Positions 23,697 to 63,700 are shown, numbered from the stretch's first letter. The stretch is 64,000 nucleotides of DNA from Minisyncoccota bacterium (GCA_041660025.1 JBAZXD010000002.1:4635-68634); one strand, 5' to 3'. Made by a program: numbers and translations. The notes: generated from the letters alone by a model not told the origin.

Positions 23697-23729
23697 CATC
23701 TGTGCAGTATTCGCGCCGTTTCCTACGTA

Positions 23730-24374: not shown

Positions 24375-24385
24375 TTTCGGTTATT

Positions 24386-28239: not shown

Positions 28240-28361
28240 TTCTTACAAGGTTGTGATATCGGCTGTGCTAGAATTACCCAATCGGTAACGTATTGTCCAA
28301 ATCATAGGTTTATGTAATATAACGCTATATCCTGCCCACTAAGATTATTTTTGCGGATTTT

Positions 28362-29186: not shown

Positions 29187-30015
29187 ATTGAAAATAATAG
29201 CTGAAATCGCATCTTCGCATAATGGCGACGTTGGTCTCGGCAAAAGAATGATACAGATTGCTGCATCTGCCGGCGTTGATATCGTTAAGTTCCAGTCCTG
29301 GCAGAGCAGAAATGTCGATGAGAGCGATCCGGATAAGGCGCGCTACGCTTCCCTTGAGTTATCTGACGATGCTCACTATGAGCTGAAAGAGGAATGTGAG
29401 AAAAACGGCGTTGAGTTCCTGACTACCTGCTATAACAGCGATCGGATACCGTTCCTGAAAGAACTCGGTCTGGAAAAAATCAAAGTAGCAAGCACCGATC
29501 TGAAGGCGTCACACTTTCTGAAGAAACTCCGCGATAACTTCAAAGAGGTAATCGTTTCTACAGGAATGTCGACCAAAGAAGAGATAGAACAAGCGGTAGA
29601 AATATTAAAGAGCGGAGAATTCACGATGATGCACTGCGTTTCGGTCTACCCCTGCCCGCTTGAAAAAGCCAATATGGGAAAGTTACTCTGGCTGCAGAGA
29701 TTGACGCCGCATGTCGGTTATTCCGACCATACTGAAGGGATCGAAGCACCAATTTTTGCCATGGGCATGGGGGTAAAATACATAGAAAAACATTTCACTC
29801 TTGATAAACACACTCTGCAAACACCACATGCGGTCGGTAAGGGGATACCTCCAATCACTACGCATTCGATTGCCAGCGAACCGGAAACATTCAGACAGAT
29901 TTGTGAGTGGCGCGATAAATATGAAATAGCCTTGGGTAATGGTAGCCTGGAGCTTCTACCTGAGGAGAGATTGACAAGAGAAAAATATACTGGCCGGTTG
30001 GGCCGGAATGACTAA
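29170..30015 (+). CDS. neuB: N-acetylneuraminate (nonulosonic acid) synthase, NeuB family. TIM-barrel core only, no C-terminal SAF/antifreeze-like domain.
   Basis: KIIAEIASSHNGDVGLGKRMIQIAASAGVDIVKFQSW matches the NeuB N-terminal signature. Confidence 0.7.
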   Translation: MAKDSKLKIIAEIASSHNGDVGLGKRMIQIAASAGVDIVKFQSWQSRNVDESDPDKARYASLELSDDAHYELKEECEKNGVEFLTTCYNSDRIPFLKELGLEKIKVASTDLKASHFLKKLRDNFKEVIVSTGMSTKEEIEQAVEILKSGEFTMMHCVSVYPCPLEKANMGKLLWLQRLTPHVGYSDHTEGIEAPIFAMGMGVKYIEKHFTLDKHTLQTPHAVGKGIPPITTHSIASEPETFRQICEWRDKYEIALGNGSLELLPEERLTREKYTGRLGRND

Positions 30016-30018
30016 TGT

Positions 30019-31191: not shown

Positions 31192-31193
31192 AT

Positions 31194-31928
31194 ATGATTT
31201 TTGAGAAAAAAATCCTAGGAGTCATCACCGCGCGTGGCGGGTCGAAAGGGCTGCCAGGGAAGAACATAAAACTGCTCAACGGGAAACCGCTCATCGTGTA
31301 TACGATAGAAGCCGCTCGAGAAAGCAGACTGATTACCGATCTCATCGTCTCGACGGACAGCGAGGAGATAGCCGGAATCTGTCGCGAGCACGGGGCAGAG
31401 GTTCCCTTCATCCAGCCGGCGGAATTGGCGACCGACACCTCAGGACATCTTGAGGTTATGCAATACGCGACGAAGTTCATGGAAGAGCAGAAAAGCACTG
31501 CCTATGATTATGTCGTGATATTCCAACCCACCTCTCCGTTCCGTACGGTGGATGACATAGACAAGACAATTGAAAAAATAATCGAGCACAATGCGGACAG
31601 CGCCTTTTCCATGTGTGCAGTAGAGCCCAGCCAGCATCCAATCAAGGTGAAAAAAATGGAAGGAGATACAGTACTGCCGTATTGTATGGAAGAAATGATC
31701 GGCACCCATCGGCAGGATTTCCCGAAAGCGTATAAGCGTTCAGGTGCGGTATATGTCACGGGGCGCGATATTTTGATGAAAGAAAATAAACTATTCGGTG
31801 ACTTCATAGTGGGTCACATCGTGCCTGCCGAACGTTCGATTGATATCGATACCGAATACGATTGGGTCTTGGCGGAATATAAATACAAAAAACTTAAAGA
31901 GCAGGGGTTCTTTGGAAAGACGGCTTGA
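31194..31928 (+). CDS. neuA: Acylneuraminate cytidylyltransferase (CMP-nonulosonic acid synthetase)
   Basis: ILGVITARGGSKGLPGKNIKLLNGKPLIVYTIEAA is the CTP_transf_3 signature. Last gene of the low-GC island. Confidence 0.75.
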   Translation: MIFEKKILGVITARGGSKGLPGKNIKLLNGKPLIVYTIEAARESRLITDLIVSTDSEEIAGICREHGAEVPFIQPAELATDTSGHLEVMQYATKFMEEQKSTAYDYVVIFQPTSPFRTVDDIDKTIEKIIEHNADSAFSMCAVEPSQHPIKVKKMEGDTVLPYCMEEMIGTHRQDFPKAYKRSGAVYVTGRDILMKENKLFGDFIVGHIVPAERSIDIDTEYDWVLAEYKYKKLKEQGFFGKTA

Positions 31929-32036
31929 TACTAGACCACCACTCCTCTTATTCCAAGATGCAGAGGGCGTGATATCATTACCGTATCCTCCCTGGAGGAG
32001 AAGGATCATTATCCCGTAACTAACTATTAAGCCAGT

Positions 32037-45133: not shown

Positions 45134-45910
45134 ATGGACGAGATTCTCATAGGCGAGAAGAAATACGTATCGTCGAAACAAGCCGCCAAGGTAACCGGCT
45201 ACGCGAAGGATTATATAGGCCAGCTTTGTCGCGAGGGGCGGGTGCCGGCGAGGCTCGTCGGACGCAGTTGGTATGTGCTTGAATCGGCCATTCACGACCA
45301 TCGCTTCGGCAACCCTGAACCAGCCAAAGAAGGAAAGTCGACGTCCTCGCTCCACTCGACGTGGGAAGCTCCGCGGTATGAAGCATCAAAAACAGAAGTG
45401 CTCCCCTCCGTGAGCCGTTCTCAGGACAAAGAACATCAAGCTCTTGTCGAAGAAAAAACTGGGAACCCCGACACCGCACAACATCTGCAAGACGCCTGGC
45501 AGTCATGGTTCAATCGTTTTGATCAGGTGGCGGACACTCCCGCTCACGAGCCAGTAGCAACCGAGGAACCGACACAAGAGCCGAAAGAGATTGAAGTTGA
45601 GCAGGAACCAGAACCAGAACAAGAACAGAGCGTGCAGATACCTATTCGCACGGTCTACCAGCCACACTACCAATCCTCCCCAGAAGAACCGTTGCCGCGC
45701 GAGGTGGATGTCCAGCCGATGAGCATCGTGCGAGAATCGCGAAGGGTGGGAACGGGAAGAGGACTGCTAAGAACAATGCAGTTAGCCGGAGCCATTGTTG
45801 CGGTACTTTCAGCATCTGCGGCGGTGCTCGGTAGCGGATATTTGGACTCATACGCAATCTCGAATAGCCAAGTCAGGGCAATTGCAGGAGTCGCACTCTA
45901 CAACAGATAG
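45134..45910 (+). CDS. HTH_17 (excisionase-type helix-turn-helix)-like N-terminal domain, acidic disordered linker and C-terminal TM anchor. This is the small paralogue of the N-terminal module of the two giant genes downstream.
   Basis: KKYVSSKQAAKVTGYAKDYIGQLCREGRVPARLVGRSWYVLESAI fits the HTH_17 pattern (EAAxxLGxSxxTIYRLxxxGxLPxxKIGxxWxIxxxDLxxFL). E/P/Q-rich linker. TM helix LLRTMQLAGAIVAVLSASAAVLGSGYL. Start at the internal MDEIL, not the track's 44849, which overlaps gatB. Confidence 0.5.
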   Translation: MDEILIGEKKYVSSKQAAKVTGYAKDYIGQLCREGRVPARLVGRSWYVLESAIHDHRFGNPEPAKEGKSTSSLHSTWEAPRYEASKTEVLPSVSRSQDKEHQALVEEKTGNPDTAQHLQDAWQSWFNRFDQVADTPAHEPVATEEPTQEPKEIEVEQEPEPEQEQSVQIPIRTVYQPHYQSSPEEPLPREVDVQPMSIVRESRRVGTGRGLLRTMQLAGAIVAVLSASAAVLGSGYLDSYAISNSQVRAIAGVALYNR

Positions 45911-46013
45911 CTTATTTACAGGATTTCTCGTCTCGGCAAGAAGTGTTTGTTTATAATCCCGAATAAAATTAAAATATACTGACTATTTATTTAACTATTT
46001 AAGTTGTACAAAA

Positions 46014-46328: not shown

Positions 46329-49300
46329 ATGAATGCTCCTCACTCAGAAAAGTTTATAGGAACAAAGGAAGCATCTGAACTGTCTGGGTACAATCCCGAT
46401 CATCTCTCTCGTCTCTCTCGGTCTGGAGAAATTGACGCGATACGTGTCGGACGTACGTGGTACATTGAACGCGAATCGCTGATAACCTTTTTAAAAAAGC
46501 AGGGTCGACGGGCGAAAGAATTTCCAGGACTGATCTCGGCGAAAGAAGCCTCGAAGAAATATGGCTACAGCGCCGACTACCTCGCCCGCCTCGCCCGCTC
46601 CGGCGAAGTCAGGGGTTCTCAGGTGGGCCGGACCTGGCTCGTAGACCAATCGTCACTCGATTCATTTCTCAAGCTCCAAGAGGAACGTAGAGAAGCGCGC
46701 GCGCGCGAGCTTGCGCGAGCGCGAGAGCGCGAGTACCGCGCTCGCCGCCAGACGCCGATGCATCGCGCGGTTCATCTTGTTCCGCAGGAGCAGGAACCTG
46801 TCGTGCCGGGCACAAACTCGTTCGTCTTTTTTTATAAGACGTCAGCACGGGCGCTCGCTACCGCATTCCTCGTCGTCGTGTTCGGGTCGCTCGTGGCACA
46901 GGCCGGACCGGTCGCCAAGCTCGCGGCGGGGACCACATCGGTCATACACGGCATCGCGGTCGGTTTCGATGCTGCCTTTGGCGATATCCCATCGCGTTTT
47001 GTAGCGCGCCTGGATAATTCTCGCGCAGATATGCACGCACGTTCTGTACAGGGGGCGGCGCGTCTCGCGCACCTCTCGGCGTCGCTTACAGCGCCGGAGC
47101 TTACTCACTTGGATCTTCGAGCCGCGCCGCTTGCACTTACCGTCGAGCCGCGTTCGCTACGGAGTGCGCCGCCCGCGCTCGTTGCTGATGGGAAAGCAAA
47201 TATGCGCCGATGGCGCTCTGATGCTTCCGATGCTCTCGCATTTATCTCATCGCCACCAGAGATTATGGATGCGTTGGCCGGAATTTCTGGCGCCATAATT
47301 CGTGCGGATGTATCGCTCGCATACACCCTCGCCACCGCCGCTCCCGCAAGCGCCCGCGCCACCGTCGCGCTCGTCGGCGGCGCGGGCGCAGTACTCGCAG
47401 ACGCCACAGCCGAGCTCCCGCGACTCGCCTCCGCACTCTTCCTGCGCACAACGTCAGCTCCGGCCCATCTCGCACCCGCCCTCGCCCAGGCGGTCTTCGA
47501 CGCTGAATACACTGCCGCAACACGCTTCGTCGCGTTCACCCGCACAATCTCCGACGCCTCTCTCGCCTCGATCACCAGCGCCGGCGAGCTCGCATATACC
47601 ATCACAAAAGGAACCCAGGACACTCTCCGCACCACAGGAACTCTCCTCGCTACCGCACCCGCAGCGGTCCACAACGCGTATCTCGGCGCACTCGGCACAG
47701 GCGCGCTCGCGCTCGCTGCGGTACAACCCACCCTCACCACCACCGAACAGATCGCCCTCTCCACGTACGAAACCATCCACGACTTCTTCACCTCGGCCGG
47801 CCGCGCGCTCGCCGACCTCCTCACCCCCGCCCCGATCATTGTCCTGGTGAACAACACACCGATCGCTCCGGTCCCCGTCGCCACCTCCACCCCATTGGAT
47901 AGCTCCGCATCCAACGGGGCAAGCCCCGCCGCTCCTCCTGCCTCCTCCCCTAATTCACAATTCGTAATTCCTAATTCAGTTTCGTATCCCACGTACACCA
48001 CCATCGTCCGTGGTGTCTCCGAAGACTTCGTCAACCAGTCCCTCACCTCGCTCCGCACCGAGCTCCTCGCGCGGGTCTCGAGCCTCATCCAGCCCGTCGC
48101 GAGTCAGGTGGCCACCAACGTCACCACCATCCAGCAGGTCAATATGATCCAGGACCTCTCCGACCTCATCGTCCGAAACGGCGACTTCCGGGGCGGTACC
48201 TTCGACAGCGGCGCGCTCACTAACGGCATCAGCGTTGCCGCCACGACCGGCGCCTTCGATACCCTCACTGCCGACGACTTCACCTCCGGCTCTCTCATCG
48301 CCACCGGCGCCCTCACCTCATACCAGAGCGCCACCGCACCACACTTCGTTGCCACCTCCACCACCGCCACCAGCACCTTCGCCGGCGGGCTCACAGTCGG
48401 CACCGACAAGCTCGTCGTCGACTCCACAACCGGGTACATCGGCATCGGCACCACAAGTCCGTACTCGCTCCTCTCCATTGCCGGACAGGTCGTGGGGCAG
48501 AACTTCATGGCGACCGACTCCTCAGCCACCTCCTCCTTCTCCGGGAACTTCTCGGTAGGAGGAAGCACCGGAGCGTACCTCACCGGAAACGGCTCCGGCA
48601 TCACCTTCTCCGGCACAGGCAACCACGACATCACCGCCTCCGCCGGCACGCTGCGCATCGGTTCAAACACCATCATCGGCAACATCCAGGCTCTCGACGA
48701 CACGGTGGACATCGGCACCCCGGCTGTCCGCTTCGACAATATCTATGCGAACGAAGTGAACGCCTCCACCATCGTCGGTACCCTCACCGGCGGCAACCTC
48801 ACCGCCGAGACTTTCAACATCAATTCCGACAACGCCACTGCCGACACCGAGAATGGTTATCTCTCATTCGAACGGGGCAGCATCATCCCAAACGCCCTCC
48901 TCACCTGGAACGCGGCCGAGAGTGCCAAGCGCTTTGAGTTCAACCAGCCCCTCTACATCGAGAGCGCCGACGCCTCCACCACCCTCACCACCCTTGATGT
49001 GAAGGGAGTGACGAGCCAGACCGCCGACCTTATTCGTGTGACTTCCTCAACCGGCGCGAGCCTCTTCAATGTCGGAGCAAATGGGAATGTGGGGGTGGGG
49101 ACGAATAACCCATCCGGCACATTGGATATTTCTTCGTCTGCAAGCACTGTTGTTAATGCGTACCTCGGTACCGTGTCGGCCGGGTATGGCAATGGCGGCG
49201 CTTTGAATTTTAAAGGAGCTGGGACAACAATCGGGACTATTAAAGAAACCTATACAAATAACCCGAGCGGAGACAGAGGACTAATGGAATTCATTGTTCA

Positions 49301-52300
49301 TGATGGTACTTCGGTTAGTACGAAGATGGTTATTTTCGGTAATAACGTCGGCATCGGGACGACGACGCCGTGGGGACAGCTCTCGGTCAACCCGAACGGC
49401 ATCACGGGCCCCGCCTTCGTCGTCGGCTCCTCCACCGCCACGAACTTCATCGTGACGAACGGGGGGAATGTGGGGATCGGGACGGCGAGTCCCGCTGATA
49501 AGTTTTCAAACACATCTTCTAATATTATTGATGAGAACTCGGTAGGAACTACACTAGGAAGCGGAATATCTTGGACAGCTTCTGCAAGCGGGTATCTACA
49601 GGCACTTTCCCAAATATCTTCTGGGGCAAACGCAAACGGTTTGCTTGTAAAAATTTCCGGCGCAGCAAGCACTAATAAAGCATTATCGTTAAATATTAAC
49701 GGTAGCGATTTATTTGTAGTTAATGGTCAAGGCAATGTCGGTATAGGGACAAATGAGCCTAGTTCACCCCTGCAGATACAAAGTCCCAATAGCAAAACAT
49801 TTTTGGATATACGAGGAACCGGATTCAATGCGGCGAATCAATATTCAGATTTAGATTTCACGTCTGATTCCAGTAGTCATGTGTATTCAAAAATAAGGAT
49901 GAATACGGTAACGGCTGCTTATGGAGGTAGTCTGCAGTTTTTTACTAACCCTGGACCGCTAGCCGCAACGGCTTCTTTAGTAAGAATGACAATCGATGAG
50001 ACCGGCAACGTCGGCATCGGGACGACGAGTCCGGCAACAAGTCTCGTCGTGCAGGCGGGTGGAACTGCTAGTGTTGTTAATATTGGGCAACTTTCCGGTT
50101 TTACGAATTTCAGTGGTATTGCATTCACTCAAAACGTCTCGTCCGCCGTCTCAACTTCCAACTACTCCATTTTAGGAGATGGAACGAACACCTATATAAG
50201 TCGTCCGACAGGCGGTTTCTTGTCTTTCCGTGAGAACAACGTGGACCAAATGTTCATCGCAACCGGTGGCAACGTCGGCATCGGGACGGCGAGTCCGGGA
50301 CAAAAGTTGGATGTAAGAGACGGAAAGTTTGCATTAACTGACGCAGACGTTGCCCACGGAATGACATCTTGGGCTACTACCGAAACCTATGGACTTATGG
50401 AAATAGATAGCGCAACAGCCGGAGGGCTAAGGGTCTGGGGATTCGGTGATACGGTGGGTCAGAGAGCATTAGTGAATCTTGGTATTTTAGGCGATGTTGA
50501 CCCAACCGATACTGTAGCAGCTATAACATTGGCGGCAGGTAAAAAGAGCGGGCCAACTGCCCAAGCTCTTAGTGCTCTTGAGACGGTTCTAAAAATTGAG
50601 AATTGGGGCACGGATTTGGTCACGATTTTAGGAAGCGGCAACGTCGGCATCGGAACGACGAGTCCGGCAAGCAAACTTGCAGTATCAGGAGGCGCGTCAA
50701 TCGGCGCCAACTACAACGTCGCCGCGCCAACGAACGGACTCATTGTGGAGGGGAAGGTAGGAATTGGGATGAATGGCGCATCGAGAACCTTGGACATTAC
50801 GGGGAATGTGGGAGCAACGAGAAGCAATACGCTTGTATACGACCCAACCAATTCTGCTACGTTCAACAGCATCATTAGTCTTTCAAGAACTGGCGGTAGT
50901 CTCACTGGGCGCAACGTACTTATTGATTTTGACGATGTTGGTTCAGCGGTTGGTAATTTTGGAATCGTTCAACACAGCACCGGACTGCCATATGCTGATT
51001 TTGTTTGGAATCAATACAATGGGTCTGCGTATGCGGAAACAATGCGGATTGATTACCTCGGCAACGTCGGCATCGGGACGACGACGCCGTACTCAACGCT
51101 TTCTGTTGCGGGTCAAGTTGTCGGTACTGCGTTTGTCCCTTCAGCCGCTACCGTTCCTTCGAATGGAGAATATCTGCCAGCGGCGAATACGCTGGGTTGG
51201 GCGACGAATGGCACTGCACGGATGACGCTCACTGCAGGGGACAACCAAACTGCGGCACTTACCATTACAAATCTCACTTCTGTCGCGTGGCCGGTGGCCA
51301 ATGGCGGCAATGTTAATATCTTCTCCACCAACTCGAGCGCGGATAATTCAGGAGGAACAATCGGACTCGGCGGATGGGATGGTAGCAATAACCGCTCCCA
51401 CGCAGTTATTTTTGGCGGAAAAGAGAATAACATCAGCGGGAATTTTGCCGGATATTTTGCTGTAAGTACTCAACCGAACGGAGAGAATCATACAGAAAGA
51501 TTACGCATTACATCCGCGGGCTCTGTCGGCATCGGGACGACGACGCCATGGGGACAGCTCTCGGTGAACCCGAACGGCATCACCGGCCCCGCCTTTGTCG
51601 TCGGCTCCTCAACCGCCACCAACTTCATCGTGACGAACGGGGGGAATGTCGGCATCGGGACGGGGGTGCCGTTGGCTCAACTTTCTGTCGGTAGCGGAAG
51701 CCTCGTAGACGCTACCGTTCCAGTACAAATAAATTCTGCTTCCGGGGGGCAGGCCTGGTACGGAGTAAACAAAGCCGGTGGTTATGGATTGCTGATGGGC
51801 TTCTATGACGTGCCGGCAGGGAACTTCCAGCGTGGCGGAGTGATTCGCATGGTGACGACCGATCCGCTGACTTTTGCGGTCAACAACACAACGAACGCAA
51901 TGACGATTTTGAGTTCCGGCAACGTCGGCATCGGGACGACGAGTCCGTATACGAAATTCGCGGTAGTGGATGGGACGGGTGAAATGCGCTTCCAGAATGT
52001 CAGCCAGAATAACCTGACTGTTTCCGGAACGAATGCAACAATCATCGCTGATAGCACAGGCGGAAGCTATCCGGGGTTTATGGCAAAAGTAAGTGGAACA
52101 TTAAAGGCGCAATGGTATTCGGACGCAACTAACGCCGTTACCTACACAACCGGCGCACAAATTTTCCAATCAGGGGGCAATACTGAAAAAATGAGAATTG
52201 ATACGAGCGGCAACGTCGGCATCGGGACGACCTCTCCCTACGCCCAGCTCTCCGTCGCCACGCCGAACGGCGCGACAGGAAGCCTCTCCACTCTCTTTGC

Positions 52301-54527
52301 CGTCGCTTCCTCTACCGCCTCGGCGACCACCACGCTCTTCTCTATCTCCAACACAGGCACGGCATCAGCCAACGCCATCATCCCGAACGGCCCGTACACC
52401 ACCAACCTCGCGAGCTACGACCTCGGCGCGACCGGCTCCCGGTGGAATGCTGTCTGGGCAGGCGCACTCAACATCGGCACCTCCACCTTCTCCATCAAGA
52501 GCGACTCCGCAAGCAACCTCGGCTTCTACACCGCCGCCTCCGGCGGCGGCACCCAAGCTCTCACCGTCACCTCCGCCGGCAACATCGGCATCGGGATTAC
52601 AAATCCTTCAGTTTCCCTGGATGTGAACGGCAGTTCTCGTTTTTACGGAATTGCTAATTTTGACGGCGCAACATACGCCGCTCAAGATTTTAAAGCCGCC
52701 GGCGTGCATAAGGCTTATATTGCTACGGCCAATGCAGTTTTCGGCGGAGGTTCTGCAAGCGATCTTGCCGTTGATGCCAGCGCGGGCAACCTTGTCTTGG
52801 GAGTGGGAGACGCTGAGAAGATGCGCATTCAAGTCACCACTGGCAACGTCGGCATCGGGGACGCAAATCCGCCTTCTAAATTAACCGTGAATGGTTCATT
52901 GCGATTTTATAATGTCCCCGGAGGATCGACAGGAGGAACATTCTGTTATGACACCAGCACTGGTGAAGTCGCCGCAAGTAGCGCCGGCACCTGTTCGGGC
53001 TCAGACGAGCGTCTTAAAACCAACATTGCCGACCTCCAAAACTCGGAGGGGCTCGCCGCCATCGCTGCTCTGCGTCCTGTCAGCTTTGTGTGGAAGGATG
53101 CAGCGATGGCCGCAAGCCAAGGGACCCAACTGGGCTTCATCGCCCAAGAGATGCAATCGATTCTTCCCGAGCTAGTGCTTAACGATAGCGGGACGACCAC
53201 CATTACTCTCGTCGATGGTTCTAAGCAACAAATTCCTAATACACTCTCCATTAACTACCAGAAGCTCGTTGTACCACTAGTGAAGGCGGTACAAGAACTT
53301 GATATCCGCACGGGCTTCATCGCGAGCGCCGCAACATCCACCGTTCTGACGGTGGATGTTGCGGGCAACATCGGCATCGGTACGAGTACGCCGAATCATA
53401 CGTTGACGGTCGCAGGCGACATCGGCGCCACCGGCTTCATCAACACCTCCACCCGCTCGGCCAAGACCGACATCAGCTATATCACCGCCTCCTCCTCTGA
53501 CGATATGCTGAACCAGCTCACCAATCTCAAAGTCGCCACCTATCGCTATACGATAGAAGACCAGTCAGATCCGCTCCGCCTCGGCTTCATCGCAGAGGAC
53601 GCCCAGACTATCGCCCCCGAAATCCTCTCTCCCGACGGAAAGGGCGTGGACCTCTACAAGCTCGCCACCTTCAACCTCGCCGCTACCCAGGCGCTCGCCG
53701 CGAAGTTCGACCAGATGGACACCCGTGTCACCTCGCTCGAAGACCGCATCTCTGCTCTCGAGAGCGGGGCAGTGTCCTCGGTAGGTGGTACAACGTCGCT
53801 TGCGAGCGCGATACAGAGCATCAGCAGCGCGCTCAACATTGGGAAGCTCATCTCCGATACCTTCTATGCGGCCCAAGGGTTCATCGACCATCTCACGGCC
53901 GCGAATGCGACTATCGGTTCGGCAACAGTGCCTTCGGGCGTGACATTCTATGACTCCGTGACCAAACAGCCGTACTGCTTCAGTATTGCGAACGGCGCAC
54001 CGACAACGACGCCCGGCATCTGCGCGGAGTCAACCGAGAGTACGAATCCGTTCGCTACCTCGACGCAGATAATAGATAATGGAATATCGATAGGGGATAC
54101 AGGAACGACATCCGCTCCGCTCACGATTACACTTAATGGAGCGACGCCGACGTACGTGCCGGTCGGCGGGACGTATGTCGAGCCTGGAATTGTCGTAGCT
54201 GGCGGTAGCGGGGGGAATATCCCATATCAGGTATATGTGAATGGCTACGTGTCTGATACCACGTCGCCCGCACTCGATACTTCATTGCCGACAACCTACA
54301 TCCTTACCTATCACGCGGCGGATGGGGCGGGGGAGACGGCGACCGCTTACCGATCGGTCATTGTTAAAGATCTCGACAGCACGACACCGCCCTCGACTGA
54401 ACAGACTGCGACCACAAGTTCCATAAGTATAGAGTCGACAACTCCAGTCTCGTCGACCGCCACGACGACCACGGATGCAACGATTCAATCAACCGATACC
54501 GCAACGACCACACAGTCGACCATATAA
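46329..54527 (+). CDS. Giant (2732 aa) membrane-anchored cell-surface fibre protein. Order of modules: two N-terminal HTH_17-like domains, an Arg/Glu-rich helix, a TM anchor, an Ala/Thr-rich stalk, more than 25 GNVGIGTTSP-type beta-helix repeats, two Peptidase_S74-like (tail-fibre intramolecular chaperone) modules, a DUF5011-like Ig domain and a Thr-rich tail.
   Basis: HTH copies KEASELSGYNPDHLSRLSRSGEIDAIRVGRTWYIERESLITFL and KEASKKYGYSADYLARLARSGEVRGSQVGRTWLVDQSSLDSFL. EARARELAREREYRARR helix. TM FVFFYKTSARALATAFLVVVFGSLVA. Many repeats of GNVGIGTTTP / GNIGIGTSTP. S74 signature CSGSDERLKTNIADLQNSEGLAAIAALRPVSFVWKD...GFIAQEMQSILPELV, then a second S74-like module SAKTDISYITASSSDDMLNQLTNLKVATYRYTIED...RLGFIAEDAQTIAPEI. 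Ig-like domain TPTYVPVGGTYVEPGIVVAGG...TYILTYHAADGAGETATAYRSVIVKD. Confidence 0.7.
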   Translation: MNAPHSEKFIGTKEASELSGYNPDHLSRLSRSGEIDAIRVGRTWYIERESLITFLKKQGRRAKEFPGLISAKEASKKYGYSADYLARLARSGEVRGSQVGRTWLVDQSSLDSFLKLQEERREARARELARAREREYRARRQTPMHRAVHLVPQEQEPVVPGTNSFVFFYKTSARALATAFLVVVFGSLVAQAGPVAKLAAGTTSVIHGIAVGFDAAFGDIPSRFVARLDNSRADMHARSVQGAARLAHLSASLTAPELTHLDLRAAPLALTVEPRSLRSAPPALVADGKANMRRWRSDASDALAFISSPPEIMDALAGISGAIIRADVSLAYTLATAAPASARATVALVGGAGAVLADATAELPRLASALFLRTTSAPAHLAPALAQAVFDAEYTAATRFVAFTRTISDASLASITSAGELAYTITKGTQDTLRTTGTLLATAPAAVHNAYLGALGTGALALAAVQPTLTTTEQIALSTYETIHDFFTSAGRALADLLTPAPIIVLVNNTPIAPVPVATSTPLDSSASNGASPAAPPASSPNSQFVIPNSVSYPTYTTIVRGVSEDFVNQSLTSLRTELLARVSSLIQPVASQVATNVTTIQQVNMIQDLSDLIVRNGDFRGGTFDSGALTNGISVAATTGAFDTLTADDFTSGSLIATGALTSYQSATAPHFVATSTTATSTFAGGLTVGTDKLVVDSTTGYIGIGTTSPYSLLSIAGQVVGQNFMATDSSATSSFSGNFSVGGSTGAYLTGNGSGITFSGTGNHDITASAGTLRIGSNTIIGNIQALDDTVDIGTPAVRFDNIYANEVNASTIVGTLTGGNLTAETFNINSDNATADTENGYLSFERGSIIPNALLTWNAAESAKRFEFNQPLYIESADASTTLTTLDVKGVTSQTADLIRVTSSTGASLFNVGANGNVGVGTNNPSGTLDISSSASTVVNAYLGTVSAGYGNGGALNFKGAGTTIGTIKETYTNNPSGDRGLMEFIVHDGTSVSTKMVIFGNNVGIGTTTPWGQLSVNPNGITGPAFVVGSSTATNFIVTNGGNVGIGTASPADKFSNTSSNIIDENSVGTTLGSGISWTASASGYLQALSQISSGANANGLLVKISGAASTNKALSLNINGSDLFVVNGQGNVGIGTNEPSSPLQIQSPNSKTFLDIRGTGFNAANQYSDLDFTSDSSSHVYSKIRMNTVTAAYGGSLQFFTNPGPLAATASLVRMTIDETGNVGIGTTSPATSLVVQAGGTASVVNIGQLSGFTNFSGIAFTQNVSSAVSTSNYSILGDGTNTYISRPTGGFLSFRENNVDQMFIATGGNVGIGTASPGQKLDVRDGKFALTDADVAHGMTSWATTETYGLMEIDSATAGGLRVWGFGDTVGQRALVNLGILGDVDPTDTVAAITLAAGKKSGPTAQALSALETVLKIENWGTDLVTILGSGNVGIGTTSPASKLAVSGGASIGANYNVAAPTNGLIVEGKVGIGMNGASRTLDITGNVGATRSNTLVYDPTNSATFNSIISLSRTGGSLTGRNVLIDFDDVGSAVGNFGIVQHSTGLPYADFVWNQYNGSAYAETMRIDYLGNVGIGTTTPYSTLSVAGQVVGTAFVPSAATVPSNGEYLPAANTLGWATNGTARMTLTAGDNQTAALTITNLTSVAWPVANGGNVNIFSTNSSADNSGGTIGLGGWDGSNNRSHAVIFGGKENNISGNFAGYFAVSTQPNGENHTERLRITSAGSVGIGTTTPWGQLSVNPNGITGPAFVVGSSTATNFIVTNGGNVGIGTGVPLAQLSVGSGSLVDATVPVQINSASGGQAWYGVNKAGGYGLLMGFYDVPAGNFQRGGVIRMVTTDPLTFAVNNTTNAMTILSSGNVGIGTTSPYTKFAVVDGTGEMRFQNVSQNNLTVSGTNATIIADSTGGSYPGFMAKVSGTLKAQWYSDATNAVTYTTGAQIFQSGGNTEKMRIDTSGNVGIGTTSPYAQLSVATPNGATGSLSTLFAVASSTASATTTLFSISNTGTASANAIIPNGPYTTNLASYDLGATGSRWNAVWAGALNIGTSTFSIKSDSASNLGFYTAASGGGTQALTVTSAGNIGIGITNPSVSLDVNGSSRFYGIANFDGATYAAQDFKAAGVHKAYIATANAVFGGGSASDLAVDASAGNLVLGVGDAEKMRIQVTTGNVGIGDANPPSKLTVNGSLRFYNVPGGSTGGTFCYDTSTGEVAASSAGTCSGSDERLKTNIADLQNSEGLAAIAALRPVSFVWKDAAMAASQGTQLGFIAQEMQSILPELVLNDSGTTTITLVDGSKQQIPNTLSINYQKLVVPLVKAVQELDIRTGFIASAATSTVLTVDVAGNIGIGTSTPNHTLTVAGDIGATGFINTSTRSAKTDISYITASSSDDMLNQLTNLKVATYRYTIEDQSDPLRLGFIAEDAQTIAPEILSPDGKGVDLYKLATFNLAATQALAAKFDQMDTRVTSLEDRISALESGAVSSVGGTTSLASAIQSISSALNIGKLISDTFYAAQGFIDHLTAANATIGSATVPSGVTFYDSVTKQPYCFSIANGAPTTTPGICAESTESTNPFATSTQIIDNGISIGDTGTTSAPLTITLNGATPTYVPVGGTYVEPGIVVAGGSGGNIPYQVYVNGYVSDTTSPALDTSLPTTYILTYHAADGAGETATAYRSVIVKDLDSTTPPSTEQTATTSSISIESTTPVSSTATTTTDATIQSTDTATTTQSTI
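47319..47860 (+). repeat. About 540-bp block roughly 95% identical to 55828..56370. It is the stalk-region block shared by the two giant genes.
   Basis: Both copies encode AYTLATAAPASARATVALVGGAGA...LADATAELPRLASALFLR...APALAQAVFDAEYTAATRFVAFTR... Further shared blocks: 47983-48220 vs 56458-56695, 48596-48830 vs 57086-57320, and 53290-53770 vs 62690-63140. Confidence 0.7.
49339..49490 (+). repeat. About 140-bp module encoding GNVGIGTTTPWGQLSVNPNGITGPAFVVGSSTATNFIVTNGGNVGIGT. Five near-identical copies across the two giant genes.
   Basis: Copies at about 49339-49490 and 51521-51670 (gene 1), and 59220-59365, 60149-60290 and 61536-61680 (gene 2). Confidence 0.7.
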
Positions 54528-54783
54528 AATAAACCGCAGTAAATAAGCCAAATCTCGTCTCGCCAAGACGAGCTTATGTAGGGGTCATTTCGACACAAAA
54601 GTGCATAAGCTGTTGATTTCGAGTCGACAATAATCGGCCCATAATCGTGTCGATATTTACCTTGGCTCCACTTAGGATAATCGTGGGTGGGGATAATAAT
54701 TTAGCTCTTATCCACAGGGGTCCAAAAATCCATCTGATTTCGCTGATATATCAAGTAATATATTAGATATTACAGCGATTTTC

Positions 54784-57700
54784 ATGGATCCTTCTTTTAA
54801 CGAAAATAAGCAAAAAAATATCTCGATCCGTGAGGCTACGAATCGTTCTGGATATAGCACAGGATATCTTTCCAATCTTTGTCGAACGGGAAAAATAGTT
54901 GGGAAGTATTCTCATAACGAATGGTCTGTCGATATCGCATCACTTGAGAGCTTTATCAAGGGGCAGGCGGAACGTAAAGAAGCGCGCGCGCGCGAGCTCG
55001 CGCGCGCGCGCGAGATGGAGTATCGAGCGCACCGCGTCCCGAAGACACCGAGCGGCGCGAACCTTCAACCTTCAACCTTCAATTTTCAAAAAAAGCCACC
55101 CGCGATGCCGCTGTCAGAGATCATTCGCGGTTCATTGCGTTCGCAGGCCATCGCCATCGCCACGGCACTTCTGGTCGTCGGAGGGAGCGCTCTCGCGGCA
55201 CAAGCCTCGGCGATCCCGCAGTTCGCGGGAAAGACCGCAATGCTCGTGCGCGAGGCCGCGCTCGGATTCGATGATTTGTTCGGCGACATTCCTGCGCGCA
55301 TCGTGTCGAGGATCGATGCCGCAGAAAATGATGTGAGGAGAATTTCTTCGCGCATCGTGGCGGCGAACGCGATCACGACCGCGCGTATCGCGTCGCCGTT
55401 TCTTGCGGAGCCGGATCTTTCTTCACTGCAGATGGCCCCATTAGAGACAAGGACCAAAAATGTCCTGGCCGACTTGCAGTCGACGTCTCTAACGGGACAA
55501 GCGCTCGATGTACCGATGATTACTGCTGATGATGTACAAATGTTTGTGCTCGACGTGTACGGGGTGGTCGCTTCGCCGTCGCGTGCCGCCCGCGCGCTCG
55601 TGAACGCATATGTCGCGCTCGGCGAAGACGCGTATGACGCGATCGCGGCGGCATTCTCTGCCTACGATTCGCTCATCGAGAAGTCGGGAACGAGAGCGCT
55701 CGCGCTCGCCGCCACGACGCGCGACACGCTGGCGGCGGCACCACAGCTCGTCGCGCAGATGAATCTCGCGCTCGGCGGGGCGGTTATCAAAGCCGCGCAT
55801 ACGGCGGTAGAAGCCGACGTGGCGGCCGCATACACCCTCGCCACCGCCGCTCCCGCAAGCGCCCGCGCCACCGTCGCGCTCGTCGGCGGCGCGGGCGCCA
55901 CACTCGCAGACGCCACAGCCGAGCTCCCGCGACTCGCCTCCGCACTCTTCCTGCGCGCAACGTCAGCCCCGGCCCAGCTCGCACCCGCCCTCGCCCAGGC
56001 GGTCTTCGACGCTGAATACACTGCCGCAACACGCTTCGTCGCGTTCACCCGCGCCGTCTCCGACGCCTCTCTCGCCTCGATCACCAACGCCGGCGAGCTC
56101 ACATATACCATCACAAAAGGAACCCAGGACACTCTTCGCACCACGGGAACTCTCCTCGCTACCGCACCCGCAACGGTCCACAACGCGTATCTCGGCACCC
56201 TCGGCACAGGTGCGCTCGCGCTCGCTGCGGTACAACCCACCCTCACCACCACCGAACAGATTGCCCTCACCACGTACGAAACCATCCACGACTTCTTCAG
56301 CTCGGCCGGCCGTGCGCTCGCCGATCTCCTCACCCCCGCCCCGATCATTGTTCTGGTGAACAACACACCGAAAACGCCAGCCCCCGTCGCCACCTCCACC
56401 CCAGTCATTCCGCCATCTCCCTCCCGCAGTTCGCAACCTTCAATCGTTAATTCAACTTCATACCCCACGTACACCACCATCGTCCGTGGCGTCTCCGAAG
56501 ACTTCGTCAACCAATCCCTCACCTCGCTCCGCACCGAGCTCCTCGCGCGGGTCTCGAGCCTCATCCAGCCCGTCGCGAGCCAGGTGGCCACCAACGTCAC
56601 CACCATCCAGCAGGTCAATATGATCCAGGACCTCTCTGACCTCATCGTCAGGAACGGCGACTTCCGGGGCGGCACCTTCGACAGCGGCACACTCTCAAAC
56701 GGCCTCAGCGTCACCGCAACGAACGGCACCTTCACCACTCTCACTGCCGGAGCGACAACCCTCGGCGCAACCTCTCTCGCCACCACCACCGTCACGGGCG
56801 ACCTCACGCTCTCCGGCATCCTCACGGCAAACACGAAAGCCGTCGCCCCGTATTTCGTCGCGACCGACACAGCCGCAACCTCCACCTTCGCCGGTATGCT
56901 CGCCATCGGCACCACCACCCCCTATGGCGCCGGCCTCCTCACGGTCGGCACCTCCTCCCCCTTGCTCTATATCGACAGCACCACCGGGAACCTCGGCATC
57001 GGCACCTCCTCGCCCGCATCCGCTCTCTCCGTTGCCGGCAACTTCCTCCTTACCGGCACCACCACGGTGACCGGCACCGACTCCGGCATCACCTTCACCG
57101 GCACCGGGAACCACGACATCACCGCCTCCGCCGGTACGCTGCGCATTGGTTCAAACACCATCATCGGCAACATCCAGGCCTTGGACAGCACGGTGGACAT
57201 CGGCACCCCGGCTGTCCGCTTCGACAAGATCTATGCGAACGAAGTGAACGCCTCCACCATCGTCGGCACCCTCACGGGAGGCAACCTCACCGCCGAGACA
57301 TTCTCCATCAACTCCGACAATGTCTCTTCCGACCAGGAGAACTCCTACCTGTCCTTCCACCGCGGCACCGTCTCCCCGAATGCGCTCCTCACCTGGAACG
57401 CCGCCACCTCCTCAAAGCGCTTCGAGTTCAACCAGCCGCTCTTCGTCCTCGACGCCTCCGCCTCCACCACCAACACTACTCTTTCCATTCAGAGCGTCGC
57501 CGGTCAGACCGGCGACGTCTTCCGTATCTCCTCATCTTCTTCGGCAACCAACTTCTTCACCGTGACCGGCGCGGGGAATGTGGGGATTGGGACGAATAGT
57601 CCAACGGCTAATTTCCAGGTTACCTCTAATAATTCTAATACGAACAGCACAACGGGTGTCGGCGTTCTTCTTAAAGATGCTATGAGCACTACTAACAAAA

Positions 57701-60700
57701 TAATTCGTTTCCAGGGCAATTCCGGTTCCTATGATCATATTATCTACACTCCAGGCTCCTCTTCAAATTTAAGAATCGGCATAACTAATGGAACGAATAC
57801 ATACGACACGGTCACCCTTACAAATGGAAATCTCGTTGGCATCGGGAATTCAGCTCCGTTGTCTAGACTAGGTGTTACTGGGAATCTCTCTGTCGGAGCA
57901 ACCTATGGGATTATCGCAGCTCCTACTTCGGGAATGATAGTTGAAGGCAACGTCGGCATCGGGACGACGAGTCCATCGCAAGCGCTCTCGGTCCAGGGCA
58001 ACGGACTGTTCTCGGGGAACCTTGCAGCTGCCAACATTACGGCGACAGGTACCATTACCAGCACATACATTGGAGGCAACGCTTTTATTGCTCCCGGTTC
58101 AACAGGATCTTCCCCCCAATATTCATTCGCCGGGTCGAGTGGGAACGGACTCGGGATGGATTCGAGCGGCAATACAATACTTCAACATTCATTTGGTAGT
58201 GCTGGTACTGGCGTCATCATTAAAACAGGTACCGGTTCGGCGGCAGAAGTGGCGCGTTTCGTTGCGGGAGGCAACGTCGGCATCGGGACGACGACGCCGG
58301 GTGCGACGCTACAAGTATATGGTTCCGGATTGTTTGGCGCTGGAGCGACCCTTTTGAGCGGGGACGTCGTCACCATTAAAGGGCAGACACGGGTTCAAGG
58401 CTCGATGATTTTCGACACTTCTCCGAGCTCCGTAAGCGCGTCGATTACCCCGAATCTTGCCGGTTACACCACCTTCAACAGCAGTTCATGGCCCATAGTA
58501 TTGCAATCGACGGGCGGCAACGTCGGCATCGGGACGACGAGTCCAGGATGGCAACTGGAAGTCGCAGGCGTCGGTTCCAAGGCGGGGAATCCCTGGGATG
58601 CAACGGGCGGAGTGGCCGCAATCACTGATACCAGCGCCTACGGGCTTGGCGAAGGAGGGCAACTTTTGTTCCAGGGTAAATATACTTCCGCCGGGGCATT
58701 AGCGATGTTTGGCGGTATCCGTGCGTTCAAGGCAAATGCTACCGATGGAAGCGCAGTTGGCAATCTTGACCTATGGTCGCGAGCGGGAGCGATTCGTTTT
58801 TATTCTACGAGTGTCCCTCAAAACGGACAGGATGGGACACCAGACGTCACGATAAGCTCAACCGGCAACGTCGGCATCGGGACGACGAGTCCGGGCCAGT
58901 TGTTGACGGTTGGGAACAATAATCAGTTTACGGTCGATAGTTCCGGCAATGTCGTGGCTACAGGGTCCATCAGCGGCACCACAATTTATGCATCATCCGC
59001 AGTTATTGGAACCAATAGCGGCGTTTTATATCTCGGTGGAAGTTCTGCAACCGTTTTGGTTGCCGCGGGAGTATTTGGTCCTATTACCGACGTTTCCCAA
59101 GATTTGGGATTTTACAATAGACAATGGAGAAATACTTACATTGGCGGCAATGTCAGGGTCGGAGCGACATATGCAGCATTAAACATCGCAGGTCCAACAA
59201 GCGGAATGATAATAGAAGGCAACGTCGGCATCGGGACGACGACGCCGTGGGGCCAGCTCTCCGTGAACCCGAATGGGATAACCGGTCCTGCATTCGTCGT
59301 GGGCTCCTCCACCGCCACCAACTTCATCGTGACGAACGGGGGAAATGTGGGGATTGGAACCGCGAGCCCATTGGCGCAATTATCTGTTGGCAGTGGCAGT
59401 CTGGCGGATGCGGTAGTTCCCGTGCAGATTAACGCCGCTTCGGGGGGCCAAGCATGGTACGGGGTCAATAAGGCCGGCGGTTACGGGATGCTCACTGGAT
59501 TTTATGATGTCGCTTCTGGCAACTTCTCTCGTGGTGGTGTTATCCGTATGGTAACGAGTGACCCGCTGACGATTGCAGTCAACAATACCGTGTCGGCAAT
59601 GACATTCTTAAGCGACGGCAACGTCGGCATCGGCACGACGACGCCCGGGTCGCGTCTGCATGTGTACAACGGTCAGGGTGGCGGATCTGTCTCCGTGAGC
59701 TCATACGACACCCTATCGGTAGAAAACAACAACATCAACTACATCAACATGATCTCTCCGACCGCCAACCGGAGCGGCATTATATTCAGCAATAGCTTGC
59801 GAGGGATTGGGGGCATTACGTATACCGGCGGTGATACAACCGCAGGGTATGGTGGTACGAATAGTTTGAATTTTTCGACCAACGGCTCAACTCAGTCTAT
59901 GGTGATCAACAGCACCGGCAACGTCGGCATCGGGACGACGACGCCGTCCTATAAACTGGAGGTGAACAATGACTCAGCCGCGACTATCGCGCGCTTATTC
60001 AGAAATCAGACTGGAGCAAACGCAGACGTAGAGTTCGGAAATAAGAGCAACACTTGGATCCACCGCGTTACTGGCGACGGAACATATGATTACACCCTCG
60101 TTAATTCTGGCAACGGAGTACGAGTATTGACAGCTCTTTACAACGGCAACGTCGGCATCGGGACGACGACGCCGTGGGGTCAGCTTTCAGTAAATCCAAA
60201 CGGTATCACGGGCCCGGCATTTGTCGTCGGCTCCAGCACGGCCACCAACTTCATCGTCACGAACGGGGGCAATGTGGGGATCGGAACGGTGAGCCCGCAG
60301 GCGAAATTTGATGTAGCCGGAAATGTCTTGCTTGGGAGCGGACAAACTAATCCTTGGGTATACTTCGGAGGTCTCACTTCCGCCTTTCCCGCATTCAAGC
60401 GAGAAGGAGCCAACATTGAGGTAAAGCTGGCTAACGACGGCAACTACGCAAACCTGTACGCGAATGCCTTCTATCCCGGTGGAAGTGGCGTTATCGACTC
60501 AGGGAGTACGGGAGTGGTGAATATAAAGAATACCACCGCCACGAACGCGGCAACATTCCGCGTATACAACACGTTCACCGACACCTCCAACTATGAGCGC
60601 GGCGTATTCGATTGGAGCACTACGGCGAACGTCCTCTCTATCGGAACGCAGGCGGCAGGGACGGGGACATTGAGGAATATTAATCTCATCGGCGGCAACG

Positions 60701-63700
60701 TCGGCATCGGGACGACCTCGCCCTCCGCCAAGCTCTCCATTCAAAACTCAGCTACCAGCTCCCCTATAATTTCTTTGAGCGATCCGCTCGGAGGAATATC
60801 ACTGGAATTGCGTGCCGGGACCTCCACTCTTAACAATACTTTCGTTGGCGTTGGAGTCGGGCAGGCCGACACAACTGGTTATTACAATACAGCGAGCGGC
60901 TACCAGGCCCTCTATTCAAATGCTACTGGTTTCTACAATACCGCTAATGGCATGCAAGCCCTTTACTCAAACACTGGCAACAGCAATACCGCCAATGGCA
61001 TGAAGGCTCTTTATTCAAACACCGGCAGCAACAATACCGCTAGTGGTGTGAACGCTCTATACTCCAACACTACTGGAGGGGGCAATACCGCTAATGGAGT
61101 GAGTGCTCTCTACTCCAACACCACCGGAGCTAACAATACTGCCATCGGTCAGTTTGCCCTTTCCTCCAATATTTCTGCTACCACCACCACAGCAATTGGC
61201 GTCAGCGCCGCTCAAGGTCCGAGCAATTACTACAATCAAGGTGGGGTGTATGTCGGCTACAGGTCAGGCTTTAGTGCGGCCACTGACTCCGACTACAACA
61301 CCCTCGTCGGCTACCAATCAGGCTACGGCATCACTACCGGCTCTAACAATATCTGGATTGGTACCGCCACCTCCTCCACCGCCATCGCCAACCTCACCAC
61401 CGGCAGTCAGAACATCCTCATCGGCAATAATATCTCGCTCCCTTCAGCCACTGCCTCGGGTCAGCTCAACATCGGCAACATCATCTTCGGTACCGGCATT
61501 ACCGGCACCGGTTCAACCGTATCAACTGGCAACATCGGCATCGGGACGACGAGTCCGTGGGGGCAGTTGAGCGTGAACCCGAACGGCATCACGGGCCCGG
61601 CGTTTGTCGTCGGATCCAGCACTGCCACGAATTTCATCGTGACGAACGGCGGGAACGTCGGCATCGGGACGACGAGTCCAACCAATTTACTTTCTTTGAG
61701 CGGCACGGGTAGTGTTTTGAGCCTCGATCGCTCAACGGGTACGAATCAACTCATTGTGAGCTATAAATTGGGAAGTACAGAATATTCGCGCATCGGTCTC
61801 GCCGGTACGACAAATAGTCTCATCACTGGGAGCGTTGCGGGAGATTTGGGACTCATGACCCTATCGCGAAAAATCATGTTTAGCACCGACTCCGGCTCTA
61901 CCGCGCACATGATTATTGACACCTCTGGCAACGTCGGCATCGGTGAGACCTCTCCCGCTTCATACGCGAAACTCACAGTAAGTCTTACGTCTGGGGCTGG
62001 CTTCACCTTACGTGGAACAACGAACTCATCGCAATTTGATATAGCCGCAGTCGGTAGTGCTGGGACATTTCTGGGACCAACTGGTGTCGGCGACACTGTA
62101 ATCCGCGAATTAACGAACAACCTGGTAATCGGCACCTACGCTGCAAAAGCTCTTATATTTGCTACGGGGAATGCAGATCGCGGGCGGATACTTAGTAATG
62201 GTGACTGGATAATGGGAGGGACTACCGTCGGCGACGGGACAAACGATGTGTGGACGTATGATAATTCAAACGACTATATAAAGAGCAGCCGCTCGCCGAC
62301 CACGCTCGCCAATCATGCGGTTTTCTACAACGGGAACGGAGCTATTGGGAGCATACAAACGAACGGTTCCGCCACAGCCTTCAACACCTCTTCAGACCGC
62401 CGCATCAAGGAGAACATTGCGACGACGACGCTCGGACTCTCGACACTGATGCAGATTTCCGTTGACGACTTCAACTTCGTCAAGGATCCGAATACGCGCG
62501 TGCAGGGTTTCATCGCGCAGGATCTGTACAACATCTATCCGGAAGCGGTCTCAATCAACGGCGACGACGGTACTGTCCCACTCGACCCATCATCCATCCC
62601 CTGGCAAGTGGACTATGGCCGCATTACCCCGCTCATCGTCAAATCCGTGCAGGACTTGAATGCGAATTTCGAGTCCCGCACCTCCTTCATCCAAAGCGCC
62701 GCAACATCCACCGTTCTGACGGTGGATGTTGCGGGGAATGTCGGCATCGGTACAAGTACGTCGAATCATACGTTGACGGTCGCCGGCGACATCGGCGCCA
62801 CCGGCTTCATCAACACCTCCACCCGAAGTGCCAAGACCGACATCTCATACGTCTCCGCCAGCACCACCGACGATATGCTGAACCAGCTCACCAACCTCAA
62901 AGTCGCCACCTATCGCTATACCATCGAGAATCAGGACGACCCGCTCCGCCTCGGCTTCATCGCAGAGGACGCACAAACCATCGCCCCCGAAATCCTCTCG
63001 CCCGACGGGAAGGGAGTTGACCTCTACAAGCTCGCCACCTTCAACCTCGCCGCTACCCAGGCGCTCGCCGCCAAGTTCGACCAGATGGACACCCGTGTTA
63101 CCTCGCTCGAAGATCGCATCTCTGCTCTCGAGAGCGGGGCAGTCAGTAGCGCGAGCGGCTCGCCGCTCGCGCTCTCCTCCTCGACGCTCGCGAGTGCGTT
63201 CGAGGGTCTCGGCGTTCTCATCAAGAACGGCATCGCCCAATTCAATACTTTGGTATTCCGCCAGCTCGTCGCGAGCAAGGACGCCGACGGCACGAGTAGT
63301 GCCGGTAGCGTGACGATACTTGTTGGCAACACCGTCGCTCAGGTCAATAATTCTCTCGTTCTCCCTTCGACCAAGGTCTTCGTCACCTTCAATTCGCAAA
63401 TCACCGGTAGCTGGTGGGTCTCGGACAAGCTCGCAGGCTCCTTCCGCGTCGTGCTCTCCGAGGCGCAGACAAGCGACGTCTCCTTCGACTACTTCCTCGT
63501 CCAGACTGAGGGCCAAATCGCGACGAGCACGCCGAGCGTATCAGGCACCATCTCTCAATCGGGCGGCACCGACGTCACACCGCCCGTCATCACCCTGCTT
63601 GGCGATAACCCGATGCACCTCTCCGTCGGCGGCACCTTCGTCGAGCCGGGCATCACCATCACCGATGACGTCGATGGCGCCATTAGCGTATACGTCGCTT

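Follow-up and report, generated by a model that had tools for sequence, protein, structure and literature searches.

Concerted evolution of paralogous genes is known from several bacteria, among them the trw pilus genes of Bartonella, omp2a/omp2b of Brucella, babA/babB of Helicobacter pylori and the tufA/tufB pair. In the Bartonella, Brucella and Helicobacter cases, non-reciprocal recombination within the genome keeps parts of the paralogues near-identical while other parts diverge, and the paralogues of one genome are closer to each other than to their orthologues. Here we describe two giant tandem genes of a Minisyncoccota bacterium that share four near-identical blocks (B1 to B4), which were likely overwritten by gene conversion. 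They lie on a 64,000-nt stretch of DNA (GCA_041660025.1 JBAZXD010000002.1:4635-68634; hereafter the window, in whose coordinates all positions are given), a chromosomal segment of the Patescibacteria (Candidate Phyla Radiation, CPR), of the Paceibacteria/Kaiserbacteria kind. From their sequence, the two genes appear to encode paralogous, membrane-anchored giant proteins resembling phage tail fibres. The Bartonella, Brucella and Helicobacter systems belong to cultivated Proteobacteria and Campylobacterota and have experimental or population support, whereas our host is an uncultured, ultra-small CPR bacterium and its giant tail-fibre-like proteins carry an N-terminal helix-turn-helix (HTH) region and a membrane anchor. 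Other bacteria already offer good documentation of gene conversion between paralogous surface genes; the present case concerns poorly known proteins of an uncultured lineage.

The closest published parallel is the tandem lpl cluster of S. aureus, where a conserved stretch present in every open reading frame (ORF) is a site of homologous recombination and the variable flanks are incongruent (Tsuru & Kobayashi 2008, PMC2568036). The two cases share tandem paralogous surface-related genes, a conserved recombination stretch and incongruent variable flanks. The lpl genes encode small lipoproteins, have a single conserved region at their centre and were compared across more than 10 genomes of one species (PMC2568036), whereas the window holds two 8-9-kb genes with four blocks in one genome, and the evidence consists of synonymous divergence (dS) and of incongruence between species. 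The genes and blocks are as follows.

46329-54527, + strand: giant gene 1, complete, 2732 aa (ORF list, translation, Pfam/NCBIfam, PHROG, match to 7dc3, hydropathy)
54784-64000, + strand: giant gene 2, at least 3072 aa, ATG at 54784, frame open from 54700 to the window end (Pfam, PHROG)
47319-47860, + strand: B1, gene 1 copy, 95.8% identical over 542 nt to 55828-56369
55828-56369, + strand: B1, gene 2 copy, partner of 47319-47860
47985-48218, + strand: B2, gene 1 copy, 95.7% identical over 234 nt to 56461-56694 (offset 8476)
56461-56694, + strand: B2, gene 2 copy, partner of 47985-48218
48596-48830, + strand: B3, gene 1 copy, 92.3% identical over 235 nt to 57084-57318 (offset 8488)
57084-57318, + strand: B3, gene 2 copy, partner of 48596-48830
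53306-53773, + strand: B4, gene 1 copy, 90.0% identical over 468 nt to 62676-63143 (offset 9370)
62676-63143, + strand: B4, gene 2 copy, partner of 53306-53773
51525-51942, + strand: older shared module, partner 59224-59641, 76% identical over 418 nt (80-100% aa)

Block limits and identities come from blastn, and all four blocks are collinear, ungapped and in frame. A sequence-only reading of the same DNA had already pointed to them: the blocks are real and far beyond chance, and its coordinates for B1-B3 were right within a few bases, but its limits for B4 were off by about 15-30 nt (offset 9400 rather than 9370; for B3 8490 rather than 8488). The identity of roughly 95% that it gave holds for B1 and B2 (about 96%) and was overstated for B3 (92%) and B4 (90%). 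Its description of the sequence between the blocks as completely diverged fits most of the B3-B4 interval, which cannot be aligned except at GNVGIGT-type motif units and one further module, the older module at 51525-51942 that it missed; it does not fit the B1-B2 and B2-B3 intervals, which are 61-75% identical with dS of about 0.55-0.9. Taken as a whole, 47318-49107 and 55827-57598 are 79.6% identical with indels. The block edges are sharp: left of B1, and to either side of B4, same-offset identity falls to 0.13-0.4 within 30-60 nt. Otherwise the genes are 30-50% identical. Mismatches within the blocks (52 transitions and 46 transversions) fall mostly at third codon positions.

Each block corresponds to a recognizable piece of the protein. 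B1 encodes an Ala-rich, predicted helical stalk directly outside the membrane segment; 12 of its 23 mismatches are at codon position 3, and its longest identical run is 75 nt. B2, with the pattern YPTYTT..VSEDFVNQSL..TIQQVNMIQDL..VRNGDFRGG, is the family's most widely conserved module and occurs in 78 related loci, and the beta-rich module of B3 (GITF.GTGNHDIT..RFDNIYANEVNA) is found in a subset of relatives at 79-88% aa identity. B4 comprises one GNIGIGT unit together with the second Peptidase_S74/ICA domain and the coiled-coil-like stretch adjacent to it. When the blocks were searched with blastn against the whole window, only the two copies of each were found. They are family-conserved modules, which also align to a syntenic relative, L001 (ENA ERZ1286166 contig_3299; 117 kb, its reading frames broken in the way an error-prone assembly would leave them), and to dozens of further loci. 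In both genes, B1 and B4 each have an imperfect palindrome of 36-40 nt (85-89% self-complementary) close to their left end.

47350-47389 and 53329-53364: palindromes near the left ends of B1 and B4 in gene 1
55859-55898 and 62699-62734: their copies in gene 2

Synonymous sites set the blocks apart from the rest of the two genes. By the Nei-Gojobori method, gene 1 and gene 2 differ in B1 by a dS of 0.074 and a nonsynonymous divergence (dN) of 0.032, in B2 by a dS of 0.15-0.19 with a dN of 0 over 76 codons, in B3 by a dS of 0.21 and in B4 by a dS of 0.28-0.31, as against 1.5 to saturation outside the blocks and inter-block stretches. The older module has a dN of 0.09 and a dS of 1.88 between the two genes. 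Compared with L001, the same blocks have a dS of 1.0-1.2 (B2), saturated (B3) and 1.3-1.5 (B4), with a dN of just 0.08-0.19; this dS equals that of SecA, Obg and GatB between the window and L001 (0.95-1.53). Among the blocks themselves dS is heterogeneous (chi-square p = 4e-4; B1 against B4, Fisher p = 3e-5), and because it differs significantly, at least two transfer events are called for; the graded ages, with the blocks and the intermediate inter-block stretches, therefore do not fit a single duplication. A 164-nt repeat (five copies, 78-88% identical) was also considered as evidence of conversion and rejected, since it is equally similar (78-87%) between genomes.

The relationships of the two genes change at the block boundaries. 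L001 has the order murB-secA-obg-gatB-small HTH gene-giant gene-gap, with a single giant gene at the site, and that gene aligns to both window genes at exactly the four blocks, at 70-74% nt identity (about 70% for B1). Within the blocks, gene 1 finds its closest sequence in gene 2, and gene 2 in gene 1. Outside them this is no longer so: upstream of B1, homology to L001 is present in gene 2 (55390-55826) and lacking in gene 1; to the right of B3, the identity of gene 2 to another relative, L006, is still 81% over 620 nt, compared with about 70% between gene 1 and gene 2; and downstream of B4 a 1.3-kb match joins gene 2 to L001 (73% nt, 60-86% aa), while nothing but an Ig-like domain matches between gene 1 and gene 2. 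A topology that joins gene 1 with gene 2 in the blocks and gene 2 with a relative outside them is therefore a recombination signature. The best matches also differ by segment: the gene 1 N-terminus is closest to L078 (78% aa), the gene 2 N-terminus to L046 (73%) and gene 1 positions 52303-52596 to L081 (84-89% nt). Since these best matches lie in different genomes and the GC content at third codon positions (GC3) of the variable regions is low (0.3-0.6, compared with 0.68-0.80 in housekeeping genes and 0.76-0.92 in the blocks), imported DNA likely contributed to the variable regions. In the protein, genome and metagenome collections searched, no further sequence of this species turned up: the exact protein was absent, the best protein hit reaching 65% identity and the best genome and metagenome loci 53-68%.

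The segment 52303-52596, a module that only gene 1 has, matches both ends (1-174 and 6990-7239) of L081, a 7.2-kb metagenome contig whose fibre gene otherwise reaches just about 45% identity at the protein level. This likeness reflects either a very conserved repeat module or exchange between lineages.

The B2 region behaves likewise in other members of the family. Our sample comprised L001 and 83 further loci, and six metagenome-assembled genomes (MAGs) in it have two family members (L006/L014, L038/L032, L033/L044, L046/L049, L039/L050 and L052/L053). In all six, the B2 DNA of the two copies are mutual nearest neighbours, at 74-95% identity against a between-genome median of 62%; the B2 copies of gene 1 and gene 2 are likewise mutual nearest neighbours among 55 sequences. 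Within a MAG, the dS of B2 is 0.34 for L006/L014 and 0.13 for L046/L049. The copies in these other MAGs are of two old types, a long one with about 350-565 aa before B2, preceded by a small partner gene, and a short one with about 225-240 aa, which lacks the partner wherever the upstream sequence suffices. The N-termini of the short copies L014, L032, L044 and L049 are mutual best hits across genomes (about 50% aa) and do not pair with the long copy of the same genome; L050 and L053, although short, fall outside this N-terminal grouping. With N-termini that group by type and B2 that groups by genome, these four MAGs show concerted evolution, and independent recent duplications are ruled out there. 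Both window genes are of the long type, unlike the long-plus-short pairs elsewhere, so the window pair represents a separate duplication or acquisition. Its sequence nevertheless indicates that it shares the family's recombination behaviour.

We consider it likely that the two genes are paralogues whose variable parts, termini and upstream regions diverged anciently or have different origins, and that four conserved modules were overwritten by gene conversion, at least twice and long after the split from L001. Segmental, non-reciprocal homologous recombination would overwrite modules from one paralogue to the other, the converted parts being three membrane-proximal stalk modules (B1-B3) and the second S74 intramolecular-chaperone domain (B4). 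The mechanism may be RecA-type recombination, for which the remaining identical runs of 50-75 nt would be long enough. Such conversion could be tolerated or even favoured if both fibres must fit shared partners, candidates being the single small HTH-membrane protein encoded upstream or a shared trimerisation or chaperone step, and it is plausible that one partner for two fibres explains why the stalk is kept alike. The distal repeat modules would be free to differ and could give the two fibres different binding properties. As far as the sequence can tell, exchange homogenises shared machinery and does not move variable cassettes. The suggestion of the sequence-only reading that tandem paralogues undergo gene conversion is thus borne out by low dS confined to the blocks, free synonymous change between species and incongruence; its word "ongoing" goes too far, as one sequence does not show it and even the youngest block is 4% different (dS 0.07). 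Several points weigh against our account. We have one sequence of this organism, in which direction, tract ends and current activity are unobserved. A two-copy MAG might, in principle, combine related strains. The shared-partner reason for homogenisation is one that we only infer, and the monomer AlphaFold2 model of the stalk region is of low confidence (pLDDT, the predicted local distance difference test, 39).

The remaining points against gene conversion concern the origin of the pair, and bring up a different history in which one giant gene was recently duplicated in tandem (dS about 0.1-0.3), after which N-terminus, inter-block stretches, central repeats and C-terminus were replaced through homologous recombination with diverged alleles from other lineages, the conserved blocks serving as anchors. 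Because L001, the closest relative with synteny, carries just one giant gene at the site, a lineage-specific duplication with replacement of variable parts is possible; the unusually low, foreign-looking GC3 of the variable regions fits imported DNA, segments of both genes best match different genomes (L078, L046, L081), and both copies are of the long type. We find this history rather unlikely, since it needs at least five independent replacements plus unrelated upstream DNA, and since blocks kept from one duplication should have equal dS, whereas values run from 0.07 to 0.31 in the blocks, 0.55-0.9 between them and 1.9 in one module; elsewhere, moreover, the family homogenises B2 between anciently distinct paralogues. 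Could the blocks instead have stayed alike with no transfer at all, held by purifying selection on the protein or by a function at the DNA or RNA level, such as an overlapping antisense gene? They do coincide with family-conserved modules, their GC3 is high, and long antisense ORFs (47105-48088 and 55662-56918) overlap B1/B2. But their synonymous sites are free to change, because dS against L001 matches that of housekeeping genes, and DNA-level constraint, including that from the antisense ORFs, is therefore removed: the same blocks are saturated against L001 at low dN. The older module is an internal control for purifying selection alone, which it rules out, being as conserved in protein as the blocks and yet at a dS of 1.9 between the paralogues. 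High GC3 is also seen in the single-copy L001 gene, and for that reason is no evidence of biased conversion either. We regard constraint as highly improbable; with selection on protein and DNA excluded, recent sequence transfer between the paralogues explains the identity. The near-identity of the blocks is best read as recent common ancestry of these segments, far younger than the split from the L001 lineage.

An artefact has also to be weighed, in which a collapsed or chimeric assembly, or polishing with mis-mapped reads, created the likeness or a false copy. The family is a clear assembly hazard, as the sequence-only reading had warned: 59 of 78 related public contigs end inside the giant gene, mostly within 3.5 kb downstream of B2. 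A copy switch inside a collinear, in-frame block would keep the frame and is compatible with the sequence. Still, 4-10% of sites differ between the copies, distributed over codon positions as real evolution typically leaves them, no identical run exceeds 75 nt, and neither frame is interrupted (2732 and at least 3072 codons); for these reasons the sequence makes collapse or an artefactual duplication in the window appear unlikely. The blocks have unique flanks, and the same pattern recurs in independent MAGs. We therefore think an artefact very unlikely. The last candidate is programmed diversification, by a diversity-generating retroelement (DGR) or by an expression site with silent cassettes as in pilE/pilS. 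DGRs are reported to be frequent in CPR genomes, and the window does offer a surface-protein context and repeated DNA. The mismatches, however, have no adenine-specific spectrum (A>N in 21 of 98), so that DGR-type mutagenesis was rejected, and a Pfam scan of 35 window ORFs, covering about two-thirds of the plausible window genes, turned up no reverse transcriptase (several ORFs at 20.7-33.5 kb lie outside the scan). Both genes are full-length with long intact frames, the shared parts are conserved modules and not variable cassettes, and silent partial cassettes were not seen in the window, all of which makes programmed diversification barely credible and leaves the cassette exchange and antigenic variation proposed by the sequence-only reading without support. 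It is homogenisation that is demonstrated, not diversification.

The comparison with established cassette systems leads the same way. Neisseria pilE/pilS, Borrelia vlsE and Mycoplasma genitalium MgPa resemble the window in that gene conversion acts on surface-protein genes. They differ in that variable segments move from promoterless partial cassettes into one expressed gene, whereas here two complete genes share conserved segments. What can be judged on sequence thus agrees with gene conversion, and features of a cassette system, a DGR or a prophage did not come to light in the window.

The architecture of the proteins puts the blocks in context. On its N-terminal side gene 1 has, in order, two HTH_17/excisionase-type domains, a hydrophobic segment (aa ~173-195) and the Ala-rich helical stalk; then follow about 15 GNVGIGT-type units, two Peptidase_S74 domains, an Ig-like domain and a Ser/Thr-rich tail. 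Gene 2 is built like gene 1: its N-terminus has a single weak HTH-like region, the hydrophobic segment lies at aa ~121-141, and there are two S74 domains as well as two Ig-like stretches. In both proteins Peptidase_S74 (PF13884; 93.5 bits in gene 1 and 62.7 bits in gene 2, above the Pfam gathering score) occurs in two stretches after the fibre repeats; its PDB match is 7dc3, the autoprocessing ICA domain of MYRF, a membrane-bound transcription factor. Trimerisation and autocleavage at this chaperone domain would be expected of such proteins. Because the S74/ICA domain and the HTH lie on opposite sides of the membrane segment, the HTH should not be set free in the manner of MYRF. In their central and C-terminal parts the proteins match PHROG tail-fibre families. 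No sequence match to the stalk was found in the PDB, and a search of the literature on giant S74 proteins of CPR bacteria returned nothing specific. It is an observation in its own right that giant fibre proteins open with excisionase-type HTH domains (46329-46700, two in gene 1; 54784-55150), followed by a single membrane segment.

Homologues of the giant proteins come almost all from Paceibacteria, Kaiserbacteria or Minisyncoccia MAGs, under the source labels "helix-turn-helix domain-containing protein, partial" or "tail fiber domain-containing protein". Upstream of the giant genes the window holds a Mur ligase, glycosyltransferases, a low-GC polysaccharide cluster, a Wzy-like protein, murB, an LCAT-like hydrolase, secA, obg and gatB. 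The murB/secA/obg/gatB synteny also exists in L001, where gap and pentose-phosphate genes come next. A prophage or phage tail module is not what these neighbours suggest, as around murB, secA, obg and gatB there is no phage structural, packaging or lysis context. Directly before gene 1 lies a small HTH protein gene, present in one copy for two giant genes, gene 2 having none of its own. A homologue lies up to 4 kb upstream on the same strand in 63 of the 68 related loci with enough upstream sequence, the five exceptions being second family members of two-copy MAGs.

45134-45910, + strand: small HTH protein gene, 258 aa from an internal ATG, with HTH_17 and a C-terminal hydrophobic segment
54528-54783, + strand: spacer between gene 1 and gene 2, 256 nt, with a hairpin at 54554-54572

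The spacer bears no relation to the DNA before gene 1 (in local alignment it scores no higher than shuffles do), and promoter and terminator scans around both giant-gene starts were uninformative. A 16-nt string, TCTCGTCTCG(G/C)CAAGA, occurs at 45925-45940 and 54552-54567, 3' of the stops of the small HTH gene and of gene 1, where it is part of the hairpin; its alignment score, too, is not above shuffles.

Elsewhere in the window, a low-GC island at 13800-32000 (43-47% GC and GC3 0.40-0.60, compared with about 55-63% GC around it) is rich in surface-polysaccharide genes, namely an NTP transferase, a UDP-glucose dehydrogenase-like protein, glycosyltransferases and two UDP-GlcNAc 2-epimerases, along with a flippase-like Polysacc_synt protein, a Glyphos_transf protein and methyltransferases. 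This glycan cluster was probably acquired laterally. Among cell-envelope genes at 2408-4273 (+) lies a TrwB/TraG-like type IV coupling-protein ATPase, followed at 4279-5535 by a PKD/FlgD-Ig domain protein.

A further repeated element of the giant genes is a short DNA motif. The 24-nt string GGCAACGTCGGCATCGGGACGACG encodes GNVGIGTT and has 17 sites in the window between 50004 and 61674 (+), 10 exact and 7 with one mismatch, where 0 are expected by chance.

50004-50027 and 58270-58293, + strand: example sites of GGCAACGTCGGCATCGGGACGACG, a string also found in L006, L026, L054, L015 and L059

Its codons are not those that the genes prefer: the third Gly is GGG in 23 of 30 cases against a background of 17%, and Thr is ACG in 24 of 30 against 23%. 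Dozens of copies in other Paceibacteria genomes are likewise nearly uniform at synonymous sites: the same DNA version dominates family genes in other MAGs, including L001, despite saturated synonymous sites relative to the window, and it matched more than 120 IMG/VR contigs compared with 14 for a synonymous version. Universal nucleotide conservation of GNVGIGTT was rejected, since codons are chosen freely at 222 viral sites sampled without bias; the conservation of the motif DNA is therefore specific to a sub-population that includes the giant-gene family. In the distal tail fibre locus of T-even phages, conserved motifs act as recombination anchors at which receptor-binding modules are swapped. 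The giant genes resemble phage tail fibres in their PHROG and Peptidase_S74 matches, their modular build, a short conserved motif at unit boundaries and modules whose nearest relatives differ, which suggests module swapping at the motif, and GGCAACGTCGGCATCGGGACGACG may be a recombination anchor. They differ from phage tail fibres in being chromosomal genes between gatB and (in the relative) gap with no prophage, and in their N-terminal HTH and membrane segment. One could go further and speculate that blocks and GGCAACGTCGGCATCGGGACGACG together form a built-in recombination scaffold for in-frame shuffling, duplication and exchange of fibre modules within a gene, between paralogues and between lineages, though we think this quite unlikely. 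If it were true, the stalk would stay matched to the single small HTH-membrane partner, and the system would be a cellular counterpart of phage tail-fibre mosaicism, used to retarget attachment to host cells.

Having found that parts of these genes evolve together, the next question is what this means for the cells that carry them. The CPR/Patescibacteria known from culture or from imaging are attached to other microbes, and to our knowledge the contact-mediating proteins of Paceibacteria are unknown. On sequence grounds the giant fibre proteins appear to be good candidates, because of their HTH-plus-membrane anchor and the small partner gene in nearly all relatives. The finding also explains the near-constant truncation of the giant genes in public MAGs, and it warns that mapping reads to single paralogues of this family, and annotating them, calls for long reads. 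In the proteins themselves, the stalk and the chaperone module evolve in concert while the distal modules differ wholly, which likely marks out shared machinery from specificity determinants.

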